DNA from: Dehalococcoidia bacterium
GTDB taxonomy: Bacteria > Chloroflexota > Dehalococcoidia > Lucifugimonadales > Australimonadaceae
Assembly (NCBI GenBank): GCA_963668465.1
Contig: OY764542.1
Location: 1,844,363-1,908,362, forward strand
Length of the DNA: 64,000 nucleotides
Direction: 5' to 3'
The stretch's first letter is position 1; the number at the start of each line of letters is the position of its first letter. The position numbers and the translations under genes were made by a program. The notes beneath the pieces were generated by a model that did no database searches, had not been told where the DNA came from, and was given only the letters and a program-made list of their open reading frames with translations. This document shows, one piece after another, positions 15,229-58,454 of the stretch.

Positions 15229-16733
<1,505 letters not shown>

Positions 16734-16975: not shown

Positions 16976-17052
16976 GGGCCACTAGCTCAGTCGGTTAGAG
17001 CGCAGTCCTGATAAGACTGAGGTCCCTGGTTCGATTCCAGGGTGGCCCACCA
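16976..17052 (+). tRNA. tRNA-Ile (anticodon GAU), encoded CCA
   Basis: The cloverleaf was folded by hand. Acceptor gggccac/gtggccc, anticodon loop ctGATaa, T-loop ttcgatt, discriminator A. Confidence 0.9.
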
Positions 17053-29938: not shown

Positions 29939-29958
29939 GACCGCTGCCTCCTTCCGCT

Positions 29959-29997
29959 TCACCCCCATCCTTCCCTTCCCCCATCGAGGGGGAAGGG
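29959..29997 (+). repeat. GC-rich hairpin repeat, family 1 (core ccttccccc-atcga-gggggaagg)
   Basis: Near-identical copies lie at 31912-31952 and 33262-33301, all intergenic and in the same orientation. Confidence 0.8.
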
Positions 29998-30026
29998 AAC
30001 AGGGGGCACGATACGAACCCTGCCGG

Positions 30027-30401
30027 TTACTCGTCAAGGTCAGGGTCTTCCTCCTGTTCTTCCTCGTCGTCTTCGTCGTCTTCCTGGTCTTCCTCCTCCC
30101 AGTCGTCCTCGTCTCCCTTCCCGTTTCCGCCCCATTCGTCTTCGAGGCCTTCCTCCTGCACGCGGGAGAGGAGCATCTGGCGGGCGGGACACCCGCAGCG
30201 CTTGTTGATGAGCAGGTGCTTCTCGGCGTGGGCGTGGACGATGGCCTGGACGATGCGCGCCGGGTCCGGGAGGCGGTAGTCGTCGGCGCACCCTTCGAGG
30301 TAGGCGGCATATGGACCGTCGTCGAGGATGGGCACCCGGGCGGCGTAGGCGGCATCCCTGAAGTAGTCCTCATAGGCGGGCAGCGTCCCGCGCCTCTCCA
30401 T
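30027..30401 (-). CDS. Hypothetical protein with poly-acidic C-terminal tail
   Basis: RBS AAGGAGG. A 124-aa ORF whose last ~45 aa are almost all D/E ('DEDDWEEEDQEDDEDDEEEQEEDPDLDE'). Confidence 0.6.
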   Translation of the reverse strand: MERRGTLPAYEDYFRDAAYAARVPILDDGPYAAYLEGCADDYRLPDPARIVQAIVHAHAEKHLLINKRCGCPARQMLLSRVQEEGLEDEWGGNGKGDEDDWEEEDQEDDEDDEEEQEEDPDLDE

Positions 30402-31900: not shown

Positions 31901-31911
31901 GGCGGTCCTTC

Positions 31912-31952
31912 TTCACCCCCATCCTAACCTTCCCCCGTCAAGGCGGAAGGGA
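31912..31952 (+). repeat. GC-rich hairpin repeat, family 1
   Basis: 'ttcacccccatcctaaccttcccccgtcaaggcggaaggga', between the HD and HIT genes. Confidence 0.75.
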
Positions 31953-31957
31953 CCGAG

Positions 31958-33158: not shown

Positions 33159-33261
33159 CGGGCCTCCGTGGGGCGTAACGCGAGCGCCAGTAACGCGCCC
33201 GTTCATTCTATTCGGTGGGGTGGGTGTCCGGGGAAGGGGCGCGTGTCACTGATTCCGGGCC

Positions 33262-33301
33262 TCACCCCCTTCCTAACCTTCCCCCATCGAGGGGGAAGGG
33301 A
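33262..33301 (+). repeat. GC-rich hairpin repeat, family 1
   Basis: 'tcacccccttcctaaccttcccccatcgagggggaaggga'. Confidence 0.8.
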
Positions 33302-33334
33302 TCAGGCACCTCCCCCTTCCTCCTCCCTCCCAGT

Positions 33335-33375
33335 ACCCTCACCCTAGCCCTCTCCCTTTGTAGGGAGAGGGGATC
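33335..33375 (-). repeat. GC-rich hairpin repeat, family 2 (core ccctctccc-N6-gggagaggg plus ggtgagggt arm)
   Basis: Reverse-orientation copy of the elements at 55616-55658 and 56768-56811. Confidence 0.75.
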
Positions 33376-36127: not shown

Positions 36128-37330
36128 TTACGAGCAGTCCATCGCAGCGCGGAGGCTGTTCAGGTTGTCGCGCATCATGCCGAAGTAGTCGCCGTACTCG
36201 GCCAGTTCGTCCAGGGTTATGCCGTCCATCGGGTGGATCTGGTAGATGCCTGCGCCGGTCTCGTCGGCGAGCACCTGCTCGTTGGAGCCGGAGAGCACAG
36301 GCTCAACCAGCACGGCTTCGATGCCGAGGTCCTTGATGCGGTCTGCGATGCCGGCGAGACGCTGGGGAGAAGGATCGAAGCCGGGCGAGAGGCCGGAGAC
36401 GCTCACCTGCTCCAGGTCGTAGGCCAGCGCGAGGTAGCCGTAGGCCGAGTGCGACGTGACGAACTCGCGGTGGGTGCAGGAGCTGAGGCCTGCCTCGAAC
36501 TCGGCATGTAGCGCCCGGAGTTCGGACGAGAGTGTCGCGAGGTTCGCCCGGTAGACGTCGGCGCCGACGGGGTCGGCCTCGATCAGCGCGTCAGCGATGC
36601 GCTCTGCCTGGGTGATAGCGCGCAGCGGGTCGAGCCAGAAGTGAGGGTCGAGCTCGCCGTGGCCGTGGTCGCCCTCCTCGTCGCCATGGTCCTCACCCTC
36701 CTCCTCGTCGTGGTCTTCGCCTTCCTCTTCCTCCTCGTCGCCGTGGTCTTCACCTTCCTCTTCCTCTTCCTCATCGCCGTGGTGGTCCTCTTCCTCTTCC
36801 TCCTCTTCTTCCTCGTCACCGTGGTCTTCGCCCTCGTCCTCGTCTTCGTCGCCGTGATCCTCACCCTCCTCCTCGTCGTGGTCTTCCCCTTCCTCCGCCT
36901 CGTGGTCCTCGAACTCGAGCGCTGCATCGGCATCGGCGGCCTCGACGACGATGCCGGAGACGTCATCGCCCAGGGATTCGAGCGCGCGCTCCAGCCACGG
37001 CTCCAGTTCGACGCCGTTCATCGCGATGATGTCGGCCTCACCGATCATGACGAGGTCCCTTGCCGTGAGCTCGAAGGTGTGGCCTTCCGCGCCGGGCGGC
37101 ACGAGGGGCGTCACTTCCACACGGTCGCCGCCGACACGCTCGGCGAAGTACTGCATCGGGTAGATGCTCGCGACCACGAGCAGCGGCTCTGAGGCGGTGA
37201 CCGGTGTGTTCGTGGGCGGAGCACTGACGGGCGTGTTCGTGGGCTCGGGGTCCCCCGAGCAGGCAACGATCGCCATGGCCAGGACTCCGGCGGTGAGCAG
37301 CTTGTACGACGTACTGAGATTAAGTCTCAT
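36128..37330 (-). CDS. znuA: Metal (zinc-type) ABC transporter substrate-binding lipoprotein with about 90-aa acidic/His loop
   Basis: Lipobox 'IVAC' and a TroA/ZnuA-like fold. The loop 36640-36910 encodes repeats of 'GEDHGDEEEEE'. Confidence 0.8.
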   Translation of the reverse strand: MRLNLSTSYKLLTAGVLAMAIVACSGDPEPTNTPVSAPPTNTPVTASEPLLVVASIYPMQYFAERVGGDRVEVTPLVPPGAEGHTFELTARDLVMIGEADIIAMNGVELEPWLERALESLGDDVSGIVVEAADADAALEFEDHEAEEGEDHDEEEGEDHGDEDEDEGEDHGDEEEEEEEEEDHHGDEEEEEEGEDHGDEEEEEGEDHDEEEGEDHGDEEGDHGHGELDPHFWLDPLRAITQAERIADALIEADPVGADVYRANLATLSSELRALHAEFEAGLSSCTHREFVTSHSAYGYLALAYDLEQVSVSGLSPGFDPSPQRLAGIADRIKDLGIEAVLVEPVLSGSNEQVLADETGAGIYQIHPMDGITLDELAEYGDYFGMMRDNLNSLRAAMDCS

Positions 37331-50368: not shown

Positions 50369-50391
50369 AGTCCTGCGCATTGGGGCGTTTT

Positions 50392-50421
50392 CCGGTGTAG
50401 GGGCGCCCCTTGTGGGTGCCC
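50392..50421 (+). repeat. Repeat family 5 (ccggtgtaggggcNcccttgtgggtgccc)
   Basis: A second copy is at 58181-58210. Confidence 0.75.
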
Positions 50422-50427
50422 TTCGGG

Positions 50428-52780: not shown

Positions 52781-52799
52781 CGAACGACAGGCTGCGACG

Positions 52800-53082
52800 G
52801 AGACGAGTACGCAGGCCACCGCGCGCAGAGCGAGCCGGGTACGGTGCGAGCCGGTGCGCGCGACCTGCCGAACATCCCTCCCGAGCCGCCGCCCGAACAT
52901 TCCCCGCACGGGGAACCAGTAGGCGCGGACGGGCAGTCCGCCCGTTACAGCGGCAGCCTTCCGCCCGCATCCGTGCGCGGCGTGAGGTGATGAGTGCCCG
53001 TGCGCCAGGAGGCGCATCGGGAATGGTGGTGGTACCACGGCAACGTCCGTCCGCCGGTGAGCGGATGGGCGTTTTCTTTTTG
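52800..53082 (+). promoter_or_regulatory. T-box riboswitch leader (Ile) with intrinsic terminator
   Basis: T-box sequence 'aatggtggtggtaccacgg' at 53022-53040. Terminator stem gtccgtccgc/gcggatgggc (53045-53070) is followed by gttttcttttt. Upstream are AGTA (52806), AGAG and GGTGCGAG. An AUC triplet sits at 52874-52876 in 'GAACAUCC'. Confidence 0.7.
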
Positions 53083-53096
53083 CAGAACGGAGGAGC

Positions 53097-56000
53097 ATGA
53101 CTGGCAACGCGAAGAAACGGTATGAACCCGTCTCCAGCAAGGTGGACTTCCCGCAGCTGGAGACCTCGGTCCTCGAAGCATGGCGCGAGGCCGACCTGAC
53201 GCACCGCGTCGACCGCGAGCGCGCGGACGCCCCGCTGTTCGTCTTCTACGAAGGCCCGCCGACGGCGAACGGCAGCCCCGGCATCCACCACGTCCTCTCG
53301 CGCTCGTTCAAGGACGTCATCCTCCGCTACAAGACCATGCGCGGCTTCCGGCCCCTGCGCCGCGGCGGATGGGACACCCACGGCCTGCCCGTCGAGCTGG
53401 AGATCGAGAAGGAGCTCGGCCTCTCCAGTAAGCAGGAGATCGAGGAGTTCGGCATCGAGGAGTTCAACCGACGCTGCCGCGAGAGCGTCTTCCGCTACGT
53501 CGGCGAATGGGAGGCCATGACCGACCGCGCCGGCGTCTGGCTGGACATGGAGAACGCCTACGTCACCTACCACAACTCCTACATCGAATCAGCATGGTGG
53601 GTGTTCAAACGCCTCTGGGACAAGGGCCTCGTCTACGAAGGCTACAAGGTGACGCCCCACTGTCCCCGCTGCGTCACGAGCCTCAGCTCCCACGAGGTCG
53701 CCCTCGGCTACCAGGAGGACACGCCCGACCCCAGCATCTACATCCGCTTCCCCGCGAAGGAAGCGCAGTCCATGTCTTACGGCGCGTCGTCCTCTGCTCT
53801 GGCGGCTCTCGGCTACGACGGCGAACGATGGACCGCGCCCCGCCCCGCCTTCATCGCCTGGACGACCACCCCATGGACGCTCACCGCGAACTGCGCGCTC
53901 GCTGTCGGCCCTGAAGTGACTTACGTCCTGTCGGAGAACGACGACGGCGAACGCGCCATCGTCGCCGAAGCCCTCGCGGCGTCCGTCCTCGGCGACGGCT
54001 GGCGCGAGGTCGCACGCTGCACCGGCGCCGACCTCGTCGGCATCGAATACGACGCCCCTTACGGCGCGTTTCTCTCCCAGCGAGGCCACGCCCACCGCGT
54101 GCTCCCCGCCGACTACGTATCGACCGCCGACGGCACCGGCATCGTGCACAGCGCGGTCGCCTACGGAGCCGAAGACGCCGAGCTCGGCAGGGCGCACGGC
54201 ATCGAGACCGTCCACACGGTCGACGTCCACGGCGTGCTCGCCGACGGCTTCCCGGCGGTGGAACGTTCGTGAAGGACGGCGACAAGCAGCTCATCCGCGA
54301 CCTCGACGAGCGCGGCCTGCTCTTCCACGACGCCTCGCCCTACAAGCACACCTACCCCTTCTGCTGGCGCTGCGGCACGCCCCTCCTCTACTACGCCAAG
54401 ACGTCCTGGTACATCCGCACGACCGCGATGAAGGACGAGATGCTCGCGGGCAATCGGGGCATCGAGTGGGTGCCGGAGCACATAAAGGAGGGCCGCTTCG
54501 GTGAGTGGCTGCGCAACAACGTCGACTGGTCGGTCTCGCGCGAGCGCTACTGGGGCACGCCCATCCCCATCTGGCGCTGCGCCGAAGACCCGCAGCACAT
54601 CGTCGTCGCGGGCTCGACCGCCGACCTCGCGGAGCGCGTCACCGACGAGACGCGCGGCCTGCTCGACGGCCTCGACCTGCACCGCCCGTACGTCGACCGC
54701 GTCACGCTCCGCTGCGACGAACCCGGCTGCGGCGGCACGATGCAGCGCGTCACGGAGGTCGCCGACGCCTGGTACGACTCCGGCGCGATGCCGTTCGCGC
54801 AGTGGGCATACCCCGTCACCGTGCCGGGGCCTCACGGCGAGGAGGTCACGCTCAACAGCGTGGACGACCTCATCGCCAGCCCGCTCTTCCCGGCCAACTA
54901 CATCACCGAGGCCGTCGACCAGACGCGAGGCTGGTTCTACAGCCTGCTCGCCCTCTCCACGCTCATCACCGGCAAGCCCTCCTACGAGAGTTGCCTCGTC
55001 CTCGGCCTCATCCTGGACGGCAAGGGCGAGAAGATGTCCAAGTCCAAGGGCAACGTCGTCGACCCCTGGACCGTGATGAACGAGCACGGCGCGGACGCCC
55101 TGCGCTGGTACCTCTTCACCGCCGCGCCCGCGGGCGACGCACGCCGCTTCTCGCCGGACCTCGTGAAAGAGACGCTCCGCCAGTTCCTCCTCACGCTCTG
55201 GAACACCTACAGCTTCTACGTCACCTACGCCAACATCGACGGCTTCGACCCCGACGCCCACGCCGAGTATTGGAAGGACGGCCGCGTGGGAGAGCCGACG
55301 CTCGCCGCGCCCCCGCCCAACGAGCTCGACCGCTGGATCGTCTCCGAGCTGAACGGCCTCGTCGCGCAGGTCGCCGACGACCTCGACTCACTCAACCCCA
55401 CCGGCGCGGGACGCCGCATCCAGGAGTTCGTGAACCTCCTCTCCAACTGGTACGTCCGCCGCAGCCGCCGCCGCTTCTGGAAGGCGGAGAACGACGACGA
55501 CAAGACGTGGGCATACGTGACGCTCTACTCCTGCCTGCTCACGCTCGACAAGCTCATCGCCCCGATGACCCCATTCGTCGCCGACGCCATCTTCGGCAAC
55601 CTCGCGCCTGCGAAGGATTCCCCCTCTCCCTCGATGGGAGAGGGCAGGGGTGAGGGTGGCTCCGGCGAGCCCCGCAGCGTCCACCTCGAAACGTACCCGG
55701 ACACCGATCCCGCCCTCACCGACGACACCCTCGACCGCGCGGTGCGCCTCGCCATGCGCATCGCCAGCCTCGGGCGCAACGCGCGCAGCAGGAGCGGCGT
55801 CAAGGTGCGCCAGCCTCTCGCCCGCGTCCTCGTCAGCCCCCGCGCCGGGGACGAGGAGCTGCTGCCGCTCATCGAGTCGCAGGTGCTCGACGAACTGAAC
55901 GTCAAGGCGATGGAGGTCGCGGAGCCAGAGTCCTTCGCCACGTTCTCCCTCAAGCCCAACCTCCCCGTGCTCGGCCCGAAGCTCGGCGCGAGCATGGGCG

Positions 56001-56506
56001 CGGCCCGGCAGGCCATCGCCGACGCGGACGCCGCTGCGGTCGCCGCCGCCATCCGCTCCGGCCGGTACGGCGGCATCGAGATCGGCGGCTTCACGTTCGA
56101 TCCGGGCGACTTCCTCATCGAAGTGGAAGACAAGCCCGGCGTCACCGCCGCGTCCGAGGGCCCGCTGCTCGTCGGCATCGACACAACGCTCACCCCGGAA
56201 CTGGAGGCAGAAGGCACGGCCCGCGAGTTCGTCCACCGCGTCCAGAACATGCGCAAGTCCGCCGGTTTCGAGATCGAGGAGCGCATCGTCACTTACGTCG
56301 TTCCCGCCCCTCCTTCCGTCGTTCCTGCGAAGGCAGGAACCTCGCCCCCGTCCCTCCCCGACGCCCTCACCGCGCAGGAGGCCTACATCCGCCAGGAAAC
56401 CCTCAGCGACGCCCTCCACGCCGCCATCCCGCCGCCCGGCACCTACACCGAGGAGCACGACATAGACGGCGCAACACTCACCGTGGGCGTCGCTCGGGCG
56501 GGATGA
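53097..56506 (+). CDS. ileS: Isoleucyl-tRNA synthetase, interrupted by a 1-nt frameshift near 54252-54256
   Basis: ORF 53097..54272 ('PTANGSPGIHHVLSR') and ORF 54269..56506 ('KMSKS') are the two halves of IleRS. Shifting the frame by -1 at 'ttcccggcggtgg' gives a continuous '...ADGFPGGGTFVKDGDKQ...'. Confidence 0.85.
55616..55658 (+). repeat. Hairpin repeat family 2, in frame inside ileS (encodes SPSPSMGEGRGEGG)
   Basis: About 90% identical by eye to the intergenic copy at 56768-56811. Confidence 0.75.
56318..56346 (+). repeat. Hairpin repeat family 4 (gtcgttcctgcgaaggcaggaac+ctcgcc), in frame inside ileS (encodes VVPAKAGTSP)
   Basis: 29 nt identical to the 5' part of the tandem-array unit at 57915. 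Confidence 0.75.
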
Positions 56507-56767
56507 CCAAGGTCCTCCGCTGTGCCGACGCAGGCAGGGCGTTGCCCCCTGTGTGGTAGCCTCCCGCTGCCAACTCAATCTGAGACCTTGCGGTAGCCGA
56601 AGGGGCGCCACTGGCGAGTTCCTGAAGGGGAGTGCAGAGGGGTTCACCCCTGTGCCGGGGGCGTGGGGGTGTCCCCCACAAGCGTTTGGGCGGGTGGGTG
56701 GGAAGAACTACGCTCCGCCTCGCGGGCTTACGCAAGGGTCTCCGTAAGGAGCACCCATGACCACTCG

Positions 56768-56811
56768 GATTGCCCCCTCTCCCTTGATGGGAGAGGGTTG
56801 GGGTGAGGGTG
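56768..56811 (+). repeat. Hairpin repeat family 2, intergenic copy
   Basis: 'gattgccccctctcccttgatgggagagggttggggtgagggtg'. Confidence 0.75.
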
Positions 56812-56884
56812 AAACGTCCGCCCTCCCCGACGCCCCCGCCAGGCAGGAGACGCTGGGCATCGCACGTTTGGAAAGGAGCTCCCT

Positions 56885-57844
56885 ATGACCACCATCGTCA
56901 CCGGCGGCCTCGGCTTCATCGGCTCGCACACCGTCCGAGCCTTCGCCGAGGCCGGAGAGCAGGTCGTCGCCACTTCGTACGAGAACCACCGCGTGCCCTC
57001 GTTCCTGGAGCCGCACGTCGGCAAGACCGTCACCATCGAGCAGTGCGACCTCGACGAGCCGGGCTCGATCGAGGCCGTCGCCCGCAAGCACGGCGCGGAT
57101 GGCATCGTCCACCTCGCCCTACACCGGCGCGCCTCCGCCGATCCAGGCGAGGACCTCCGCATCAACATGGACAAGCTCTCCCACCTCTTCGACGGTGCGA
57201 CTGCCGCAGGCGTGCGCCGCTTCTGCTGGGGGTCCAACGGCGCGATGTTCGCGGAGCTCCCGGAAGGGCCGTTCCACGAGGAGACGCCGGTCCTGCTCAC
57301 CGGAGGCGTGAAGCCCGGCGCGTTCAAGAAGGCGTGGGAAGTGCTGGTCCACAACTACGCCAACAACTACGGGGGCGACATGGAGGTCGTCTCCATGCGC
57401 ATCAGCGGCGTCTTCGGCCCCACCTACCGCTCCATGCTCAACCTGCCGAGCCGCCTCTGCCACGCCGCGTCCCGGGGCCACGAACCGGACTTCTCCGAGC
57501 GCTTCGGCGGCGTCCCGTTCGCCGGGGATACCTTCGACATCACCTACGCGCCCGACGTCGCCGAGGCGATCCGCTCCCTCCAACAGGCGCCCTCGCTCGC
57601 GCACACCGTCTACAACATAGGCCGGGCCGAACCCGTCACCGCCGCCGACCTCCTCGACGCCGTCCGCGCCGCCAAACCCGGCTTCGACGCAACCCTCCAG
57701 GAAGGCCGCAGCCCCCGCTACCGCCCCAACGCCTGCCTCGACAACGAGCGCATCACCGCCGAGACCGGCTGGCGCCCCGCCCACACCATCCCCGCCGCCA
57801 TCGCCGACTACATCGCCTGGCTCGACTCCGGCGAAGACTTCTAG
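56885..57844 (+). CDS. NAD-dependent epimerase/dehydratase family protein
   Basis: RBS AAAGGAG and 'IVTGGLGFIGSH'. Confidence 0.75.
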   Translation: MTTIVTGGLGFIGSHTVRAFAEAGEQVVATSYENHRVPSFLEPHVGKTVTIEQCDLDEPGSIEAVARKHGADGIVHLALHRRASADPGEDLRINMDKLSHLFDGATAAGVRRFCWGSNGAMFAELPEGPFHEETPVLLTGGVKPGAFKKAWEVLVHNYANNYGGDMEVVSMRISGVFGPTYRSMLNLPSRLCHAASRGHEPDFSERFGGVPFAGDTFDITYAPDVAEAIRSLQQAPSLAHTVYNIGRAEPVTAADLLDAVRAAKPGFDATLQEGRSPRYRPNACLDNERITAETGWRPAHTIPAAIADYIAWLDSGEDF

Positions 57845-57867: not shown

Positions 57868-58053
57868 GTCGTTCCTGCGAAGGCAGGAACCTAGCCTGAG
57901 TGTGACCCGCTCATGTCGTTCCTGCGAAGGCAGGAACCTCGCCTGAGTGTGACCCGCTCATGTCGTTCCTGCGAAGGCAGGAACGACGCCTGAGTGTGAC
58001 CCGCTCATGTCGTTCTTGCGAAGGCAGGAACTTCGCCTGAGTGACCCGCTCAT
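57868..58053 (+). repeat. Tandem array, 4 units of 47 nt (hairpin gttcctgc-gaa-ggcaggaac plus gcctgagtgtgacccgctcat)
   Basis: Units start at 57868, 57915, 57962 and 58009. They differ mainly in 3 nt after the hairpin, and the last unit is 45 nt. The array runs into a family-3 repeat at 58045-58070. Confidence 0.85.
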
Positions 58054-58180
58054 GGTGAGCCTGTCGAACCACCCCCACCGCCCCCTTCTCCGTCATTCCC
58101 TCCCTCCCCGTCATTACCGCGAACGCGGGAATCCAGCGTGCCCGACAGGGCACACGGGGCAGGGAGGCGAGGGGCGGTGT

Positions 58181-58210
58181 CCGGTGTAGGGGCATCCCTT
58201 GTGGGTGCCC
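58181..58210 (+). repeat. Repeat family 5
   Basis: 'ccggtgtaggggcatcccttgtgggtgccc', matching 50392-50421. Confidence 0.75.
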
Positions 58211-58454
58211 AAAGCGTACCCCCTCGTCCTACATCCCGTGCTTGAACAACACGAACCGCTCATCGATCTCGAATCCCACCGACTCCCATCCCCCCAACCC
58301 CACTACTGACACCCGCCCCTTACCCCATCGCCCCCGCATCCGCTACGCTGGACGCATGACCGTCGCACAGGCAACACCTATAAGTTGCGTCTATGGCTCA
58401 CAGCCCCAGCCATCAACAGGATCTATGGCTCCGGCGCAAACTTTTGAAAACACT

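Follow-up and report, generated by a model that had tools for sequence, protein, structure and literature searches.

The ileS gene, which encodes isoleucyl-tRNA synthetase (IleRS), spans positions 53097-56506 on the plus strand of a 64,000-nt stretch of a Dehalococcoidia genome, referred to here as the window, and its reading frame includes two segments that match two families of hairpin repeats, termed family 2 and family 4. With a probability of about 0.8, the two segments represent short GC-rich stem-loop repeats, members of the repetitive extragenic palindromic (REP) class, copies of which have become fixed inside ileS. Assignment of the gene relies on the Pfam domains tRNA-synt_1, Anticodon_1, and DUF5915, which identify the product of the open reading frame (ORF) at 54269-56506 as IleRS. 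This ORF is open across both elements (...DSPSPSMGEGRGEGGSG... and ...VVPAKAGTSP...). The gene and its insertion sites comprise the following features:

52785-53057, plus strand: T-box-like leader upstream of ileS (Rfam RF00230; 45.6 bits, E = 6.8e-08, under the gathering score of 93)
53097-54272, plus strand: N-terminal part of ileS, 391 codons in the ORF list, ended by a frameshift; matches Pfam tRNA-synt_1 profile positions 2-184
54251-54253, plus strand: C run in which a 1-nt deletion divides ileS in two; CCC here versus CCCC or CCCGGG in five relatives
54269-56506, plus strand: C-terminal part of ileS, 745 codons, with both insertion sites; product identical to database protein P0001
55607-55616, plus strand: site 1, remnant of family 4 (a CGTC REP), 10 nt, CCTGCGAAGG, just 5' of family 2
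55620-55658, plus strand: site 1, family 2 element with a 9-bp stem, a 5-nt loop, and the tail GGGGTGAGGGTG; translated as PSPSMGEGRGEG
56297-56317, plus strand: site 2, half-copy of the CGTC REP with a C-rich spacer, 21 nt, GTCGTTCCCGCCCCTCCTTCC; translated as VVPAPPS; precedes the full unit
56317-56346, plus strand: site 2, full family 4 unit with a CGTC tag, the 8-bp stem GTTCCTGC, the loop GAAG, and the tail CTCGCC; translated as VVPAKAGTSP

The frameshift that divides the gene is unconnected with the repeats. At the position of the C run, the five relatives have TTCCCCGGCGG or TTCCCGGGCGG, translated as FPGGGTFVKD, with one extra C in the related locus L001. The public protein P0001 shows the same truncation, with 745 residues as in the product of the window ORF. 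The frameshift is probably a homopolymer assembly error and not the mark of a pseudogene.

Hairpin repeats in and around ileS

The family 2 element of site 1 contains the hairpin CCCTCTCCC-TCGAT-GGGAGAGGG at 55622-55644, followed by CA and then by its tail, and has a predicted RNA folding energy of -24.2 kcal/mol. A second copy is found at 56775-56811, and a weaker third one near 33334-33371 on the minus strand. The 10-mer that precedes the element is found elsewhere in the window only inside family 4 copies and aligns with a complete family 4 unit that occupies this position in L001; on these two grounds, site 1 consists of a family 4 remnant and a family 2 element.

Family 4 is present at 56318-56340 as GTCGTTCCTGCGAAGGCAGGAAC, and the full unit of site 2 has a predicted RNA folding energy of -16.4 kcal/mol (z = -3.55). 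The same sequence recurs at 57868, 57915, 57962, and 58009; the copy at 58009 has one mismatch. The half-plus-full layout of site 2 is found again at the intergenic loci L004, L020, L109, and L120 and at 58090-58137 of the window. The copies inside the gene keep perfect stems, of 9 bp in family 2 and 8 bp in family 4, and both families recur within 1.6 kb downstream of ileS, where the following features lie:

56757-56888, plus strand: 43-codon ORF with the second family 2 copy (56773-56811); its stop codon overlaps the ATG of an epimerase gene
57868-58054, plus strand: tandem array of four family 4 units with a period of 47 nt (Tandem Repeats Finder score 325, 94% matches)
58090-58137, plus strand: ATT-type CGTC REP, CGTCATTACCGCGAACGCGGGAATCCAG, after a half-copy, identified by sequence (regular expression match at 58109-58132)

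The array at 57868-58054 was considered as a possible CRISPR and rejected: its units are repeated over their full 47 nt at 94% identity, which leaves no unique spacers. Rfam contains no family matching the repeats, its sole match being a subthreshold microRNA model (E = 0.48), and a protein database search with the concatenated repeat peptide returned no match.

A reading of the letters without database searches (the sequence-only reading) had placed two repeat families in frame within ileS and near-identical copies in the noncoding DNA downstream. The first claim is borne out, as ORF 54269-56506 reads through both elements and neither pattern is found in dinucleotide-preserving shuffles (0 matches in 100 shuffles for family 2, and 0 matches for family 4). 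Both elements lie where they had been reported, but their extents had been drawn too narrowly: the insert at site 2 also takes in the half-copy at 56297-56317, and site 1 also contains the family 4 remnant at 55607-55616. The downstream copies exist as well (56775-56811 and 57868-58054), but the family 2 copy lies inside the 43-codon ORF, a duplicate of the ileS tail, and does not represent an independent intergenic occurrence.

The window has a G+C content of 66.6%, and the peptides are of low complexity, so that a chance likeness of GC-rich coding sequence to intergenic repeats might be suspected. This explanation is scarcely credible in view of the identities of 23/23 and 37/40, which are far above chance, of the absence of matches in 100 shuffles, and of the absence of the segments from orthologues.

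Two variable loops of IleRS

The closest homologues of the window protein are the IleRS sequences from Chloroflexota, Dehalococcoidia, and SAR202 metagenome-assembled genomes (MAGs). In a MAFFT alignment of 60 IleRS sequences, the insert at site 1 is absent from P0011-P0017 and P0019-P0044, where LAPxG joins xxSVHLE directly; most of these proteins are also without the insert at site 2, Y(V)xx running directly into LxxAL..YIRQETLS. The solved IleRS structure (PDB 8c8v) has a 19-residue gap facing the site 1 peptide, and in the close relative L124 (P0011), both sites are empty at the DNA level. In all, ~50 orthologues are without the two peptides, the family 2 element of site 1 being absent from P0011-P0060. 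Judged by this alignment, the two peptide segments, SPSPSMGEGRGEGG and VVPAKAGTSP, are lineage-specific insertions of dispersed hairpin repeats, absent outside a small clade, in agreement with the sequence-only reading, which had named such an alignment as a check.

Site 1 falls within the Anticodon_1 domain and site 2 within DUF5915. An AlphaFold2 model built from a 66-sequence alignment (mean predicted local distance difference test score [pLDDT], 81) represents both as coil, as the proposal of insertions in surface loops had anticipated: residues 451-465 of site 1 (pLDDT below 50) are predicted to lie between helices 435-445 and 486-509, and site 2 (pLDDT 65 to 73) between strand 673-679 and helix 696-702.

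The same two sites differ in repeat content among the relatives:

Window: site 1, family 4 remnant and family 2, 17 extra residues; site 2, half-copy and full family 4, 16 extra residues
L001 (P0002): site 1, three tandem 117-nt units, each of family 4, family 2, and an extension; site 2, three 21-nt half-units and a full family 4
L002 (P0006): site 1, family 2, family 4, and family 2; site 2, no recognizable repeat
L121 (P0003): site 1, 1.5 family 2 units; site 2, an ATT-type CGTC unit and three family 2 units
L122 (P0005): site 1, family 2 in a second reading frame (PLSLQGERxRVRV); site 2, no recognizable repeat
L123 (P0007): site 1, family 2 in the second frame; site 2, family 2
L124 (P0011): site 1, empty; site 2, empty

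Thus, L001, L002, L121, L122, and L123 carry intact hairpin elements that differ in family, frame, and number, and across six relatives with differing repeat mosaics, insert length at the two sites varies from 4 to ~110 residues. The third forward frame of family 2 contains a TGA codon and is never used in ileS. L001 is syntenic with the window at ~93% DNA identity, and the window has 286 nt fewer at site 1 and 42 nt fewer at site 2. In a rough neighbor-joining tree, P0024, in which site 1 is empty, and P0010, which has 4 residues there, nest in the insert-bearing clade; their position therefore requires repeated gain, loss, or replacement. Both sites are permissive loops with fast turnover.

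Collapse or misjoining of repeats into the ileS gene of a metagenome-assembled genome would be in keeping with the one likely assembly error in the window, at the C run, and with an N-masked stretch in the family 4 array of L001. Such an artefact is highly improbable, since the same two codon positions are filled in independent assemblies from different samples and archives (European Nucleotide Archive scaffolds and contigs and an NCBI assembly) and the reading frame is kept in all of them.

Inserts are kept at both sites in at least 10 IleRS sequences and their hairpins stay perfect, which would be consistent with a selected function of the loop peptides, for example, as a new interaction surface. 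Nevertheless, co-option of this kind is improbable: content, length, frame, and family vary between close relatives; site 1 of P0024 is empty within the clade and that of P0010 holds only 4 residues; the segments are predicted to be disordered; and similar inserts are found in unrelated proteins.

Class and dispersal of the elements

A scan for family 4 with one genome per species detected at least 118 loci. Among the matches listed, to which the counts in this paragraph also refer, most come from MAGs of Dehalococcoidia or Chloroflexota and a minority from Massilia, Herbaspirillum, Luteibacter, and others. Alignment of 163 copies gave the consensus ccCCGTCGTTCCTGCGgAGGCAGGAACCtCGcc, with nothing conserved outside it. 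The CGTC tag is present in 127 of the 137 Chloroflexota copies and is replaced by TGTC in 8; the loop is GGAG in 84 of these copies and GAAG in 53. The tail reads CTC in 85/137 and CCA in 17/137 Chloroflexota copies versus CCA in 23/28 copies from other phyla. An identical family 4 23-mer with the CCA tail is found in the proteobacterial genera Massilia, Herbaspirillum, and Luteibacter (L010, L014, L017, L023, L056, L058, L064, L072, and L093); the REP core of family 4 is therefore common to several phyla.

In the window, the family 4 copies at 56317 and 57867 consist of CGTC followed by GTTCCTGC, and GTTCCTGC-GAAG-GCAGGAAC forms a perfect 8-bp stem with a 4-nt loop. As far as sequence architecture goes, family 4 fits a CGTC-tagged REP of the family CGTC-1, which consists of the tag, an 8-bp stem, a 4-nt loop, and a 3-nt tail (Di Nocera, De Gregorio & Rocco 2013, BMC Genomics 14:522; PMC3733652), except for the A-T start of the stem. 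The unpaired tag of that class is CGTC or, alternatively, TGTC or CCTC. Like the CGTC-1 REPs, family 4 has an unpaired tag and a short tail, is dispersed and mostly intergenic, forms some mosaics, and includes in-frame intragenic copies. The ATT-type copy at 58109-58132 does start its stem with A-T pairs. The host phylum is different: CGTC repeats were found in five phyla, which did not include Chloroflexi, and the only REPs of Chloroflexi were GTAG-23 (PMC3733652). No dedicated transposase is known for CGTC REPs (PMC3733652).

Family 2 consists of a 9-bp hairpin and the sequence GGGGTGAGGG that comes after it; the hairpin has no tag, GTAG included, and its flanks vary. The family 2 tail GGGGTGAG fits the GGGGWSAS consensus of the terminal inverted repeats that flank TIRYT tyrosine-transposase genes (PMC3733652), an 8-nt resemblance that serves as a lead only. 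Families 2 and 4 often occur together as mosaics in these Dehalococcoidia. In clustering as short hairpins in mosaics downstream of genes, they resemble the RAYT-mobilized GTAG REPs and REPINs and the BIMEs of Escherichia coli; unlike GTAG REPs, neither family has a GTAG tag. A GTAG-tagged hairpin, GTAGGGGCRYCCCTYGTGGGYGCCC, accompanies family 4 in the window (58186-58210) and four times in L028. This hairpin represents a further repeat family, with another window copy at 50394-50424; at 550-800 of L028, 75-nt tandem units are made up of this hairpin and family 4 in alternation, and at 50370-50424 of the window, the hairpin occupies the place of the DUF2177 gene of L001.

The likeness to Rickettsia palindromic elements (RPEs), which the sequence-only reading had drawn, is closer than claimed, as RPE-4 and RPE-6 of Rickettsia conorii are CGTC REPs (PMC3733652) and hence members of the superfamily that family 4 fits. 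As with the RPEs (Ogata et al. 2000, via PMC10969869 and PMC3733652), palindromic repeats lie in frame in unrelated housekeeping genes without destroying them, and the insertions fit the fold, in predicted surface coil of the AlphaFold2 model rather than of a solved structure. RPE-1 is ~150 bp long and encodes one conserved peptide, whereas the units of the window lineage are 23 to 45 nt long and form mixed mosaics; the RPE host is reduced, AT-rich, and intracellular, in contrast to the free-standing 3.2-Mb high-GC genome of this member of the Dehalococcoidia.

A precedent exists in the same enzyme. E. litoralis carries an in-frame CGTC REP, VTPAEAGVSPGHEQIPASAGMT, in its isoleucyl-tRNA synthetase ELI_13550 (PMC3733652), where the insert occupies residues 467-488 of 965 and corresponds to neither loop of the window IleRS; the glycyl-tRNA synthetase beta subunit of E. 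litoralis contains the identical peptide VVPAKAGTS, also derived from a CGTC REP (PMC3733652). Hence, the phenomenon and the host enzyme class have precedent, and what is new is the lineage and the two recurrent hypervariable loops. It had been fair to call the insertions noteworthy in this lineage, but they are not new in kind and reveal no new kind of system. They extend in-frame REP insertion, earlier known mainly from Proteobacteria including the RPEs of Rickettsia, to Chloroflexota, a phylum without CGTC repeats in the 2013 survey.

Other genes also harbor these repeats. Coding regions were called by a crude test, namely, a frame free of stop codons over at least 450 nt and a difference in G+C content between third and second codon positions (GC3-GC2) of at least 0.30 in both flanks. 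By this heuristic, 17 of 187 sampled repeat copies lie within coding sequences, and 154 of 165 family 4 copies lie outside them. In CTP synthase, ~70 residues of repeat peptide split the N-terminal Pfam domain into two stretches, and in-frame copies, verified by Pfam, are also present in a major facilitator superfamily transporter and in the linker of an E2 acyltransferase. A conserved protein with no Pfam match carries a repeat at one shared position in two genomes, the repeat family differing between them (L018, ~2453-2488; L050, ~1277-1299). Its homologues are ~450 to 540 residues long, and the position represents another apparent hot spot. In this small sample of non-IleRS proteins, the only translations of family 4 are VVPA[EK]AGT and, in the reverse orientation, VPASAGTT; its Arg/Cys-rich frames are not found. 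For annotation, such repeats account for odd low-complexity segments in conserved proteins and for spurious small ORFs in these MAGs.

Turnover and origin of the inserts

The course of events might have been as follows. Repeat mosaics would have entered two indel-tolerant IleRS loops in the ancestor of the small clade, site 1 being the loop that follows the final helix of the anticodon-binding bundle and site 2 a strand-to-helix loop in the C-terminal DUF5915 domain. Their first arrival may be due to whatever process spreads CGTC REPs. The content of the sites could then have turned over as more repeats were inserted, as segments were deleted or were duplicated in tandem in the manner of slippage, and as nearby repeats were copied onto one another. 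Persistence would be explained by a net length that is a multiple of three, by the absence of stop codons from the used frames, and by the placement of Pro/Gly/Ala/Ser-rich peptides in disordered surface coil. On this view, the inserts would be tolerated passengers filtered by frame, stop absence, and loop position.

Part of this turnover can be traced immediately downstream of ileS. The 43-codon ORF encodes MTTRIAPSPLMGEGWGEGETSALPDAPARQETLGIARLERSSL, the beginning of which resembles that of the epimerase (MTTIVT) and the end that of IleRS (...RQETLS...VARxERS). This small ORF is conserved in L001, L002, L122, and L123, its frame being kept in five genomes at 41 to 52 codons; L121 is without it, and there ileS abuts the epimerase gene. 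In L123, the DNA of the small ORF aligns, with an internal deletion, to the stretch that runs from family 2 at site 2 to the ileS stop and the epimerase start. On the evidence of these alignments, ORF 56757-56888 is a decayed tandem duplicate of the 3' end of ileS and the start of the epimerase gene. Because it duplicates the ileS tail, the family 2 copy at 56775-56811 is a paralogue of an ancestral in-gene copy. Only one of the sampled copies, that of the small ORF 1.15 kb downstream, has the same GGATT 5' flank and TYGAT loop as the family 2 copy of site 1, which points to local copying.

These observations bear on the main rival explanation for the origin of the ileS copies, namely, that they arose or were replaced by local recombination rather than through a transposase: by microhomology-mediated tandem duplication, hairpin slippage, or ectopic gene conversion involving repeats separated by a few hundred bases. 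The small ORF duplicates the ileS tail in tandem, beginning at a family 2 element, and L122 has yet another copy of this segment; L001 has three tandem 117-nt units at site 1 and three tandem 21-nt units at site 2; and, among the sampled copies, the one most similar to the site 1 copy in its flank and loop is the neighboring small-ORF copy. Local recombination explains the turnover well but not the dispersal: it accounts neither for how two unrelated families first reached the two sites nor for the at least 118 dispersed loci in many genomes and the in-frame copies in unlinked genes. As a complete origin of the ileS copies, it is a possible but tentative explanation; it concerns mechanism and is partly compatible with the fixation of REP-class repeats inside the gene.

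Several points weigh against REP-class insertion. The stem of family 4 opens with G-C and then T-A instead of the near-invariable A-T, A-T pairs of CGTC REPs, and its tail is mostly CTC(GCC) and not CCA. Those changes that can be traced consist of duplications, deletions, and what looks like local copying. Neither a transposase nor a target-site duplication was detected, nor any clean solo pair of filled and empty sites, and for this reason transposition is not demonstrated. In a six-way alignment of syntenic loci, no clean solo pairs or target-site duplications exist outside ileS and the downstream spacer, and comparison of the ileS sites with the empty sites of L124 revealed no evident flanking direct repeats of the kind that mark a MITE. 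A crude HUH-motif screen for RAYT among 623 GC3-supported ORFs from ~1 Mb of loci, a small and biased sample, yielded 7 candidates, none of them convincing on inspection. The coding calls come from the crude GC3-GC2 heuristic, applied to loci chosen for containing family 4; neutrality of the inserts is assumed from the low confidence of the structural model; and the ileS frame is broken upstream in this assembly, which bears on the expression of this exact allele.

A stronger version of REP-class insertion, in which essential enzymes of this Dehalococcoidia clade, such as IleRS and CTP synthase, would repeatedly acquire hypervariable surface loops from REP mosaics, with new units landing by preference at an existing unit or CGTC-like sequence, is unlikely. 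The empty site 2 of L124 reads TA-CGTC-GCTCC, which resembles the 5' end of the element itself. If loops are generated in this way, genomes that are 93% identical and differ by hundreds of repeat bases would offer a natural system for the study of CGTC REP propagation. The strain-level differences could help to show how CGTC REPs spread, and two loops of an essential aminoacyl-tRNA synthetase tolerate from 0 to ~110 extra residues, changing between close strains.

A further change is seen at the end of the gene:

56501-56743, plus strand: 243-nt insertion at the ileS stop codon, private to the window and absent from L001

This insertion alters the C terminus of IleRS, which is GVARAG* in the window versus GVARVVRS* in L001. 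Its 3' ~110 nt (56627-56742) is a further dispersed repeat that matches L101, L071 (twice), L121 (twice), L069, and L094 at 81 to 93% identity. Farther downstream, at 58288-58302, the window lacks an acetyltransferase gene that is present in L001 (13301-13788), L121, L122, and L123.

Elsewhere in the window, a related hairpin, CCCTTCCCCC-TCGAT-GGGGGAAGGG with a GGATGGGGGTGAAG tail, is found on the minus strand at 29956-30003, 31910-31957, and 33259-33306. These three copies lie in successive gaps, and a family 2 copy occupies 33334-33371. A complete 16S rRNA gene is located at 15230-16730 and is followed by a tRNA gene at 16976-17049; Rfam gives no 23S or 5S match within the 64-kb window, and the rRNA genes appear to be unlinked. 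Long imperfect tandem tracts rich in CTT, CCT, and GTC, at 36642-36953 and 30013-30151, are unrelated to the hairpin repeats; their opposite strand would read as an acidic low-complexity region.

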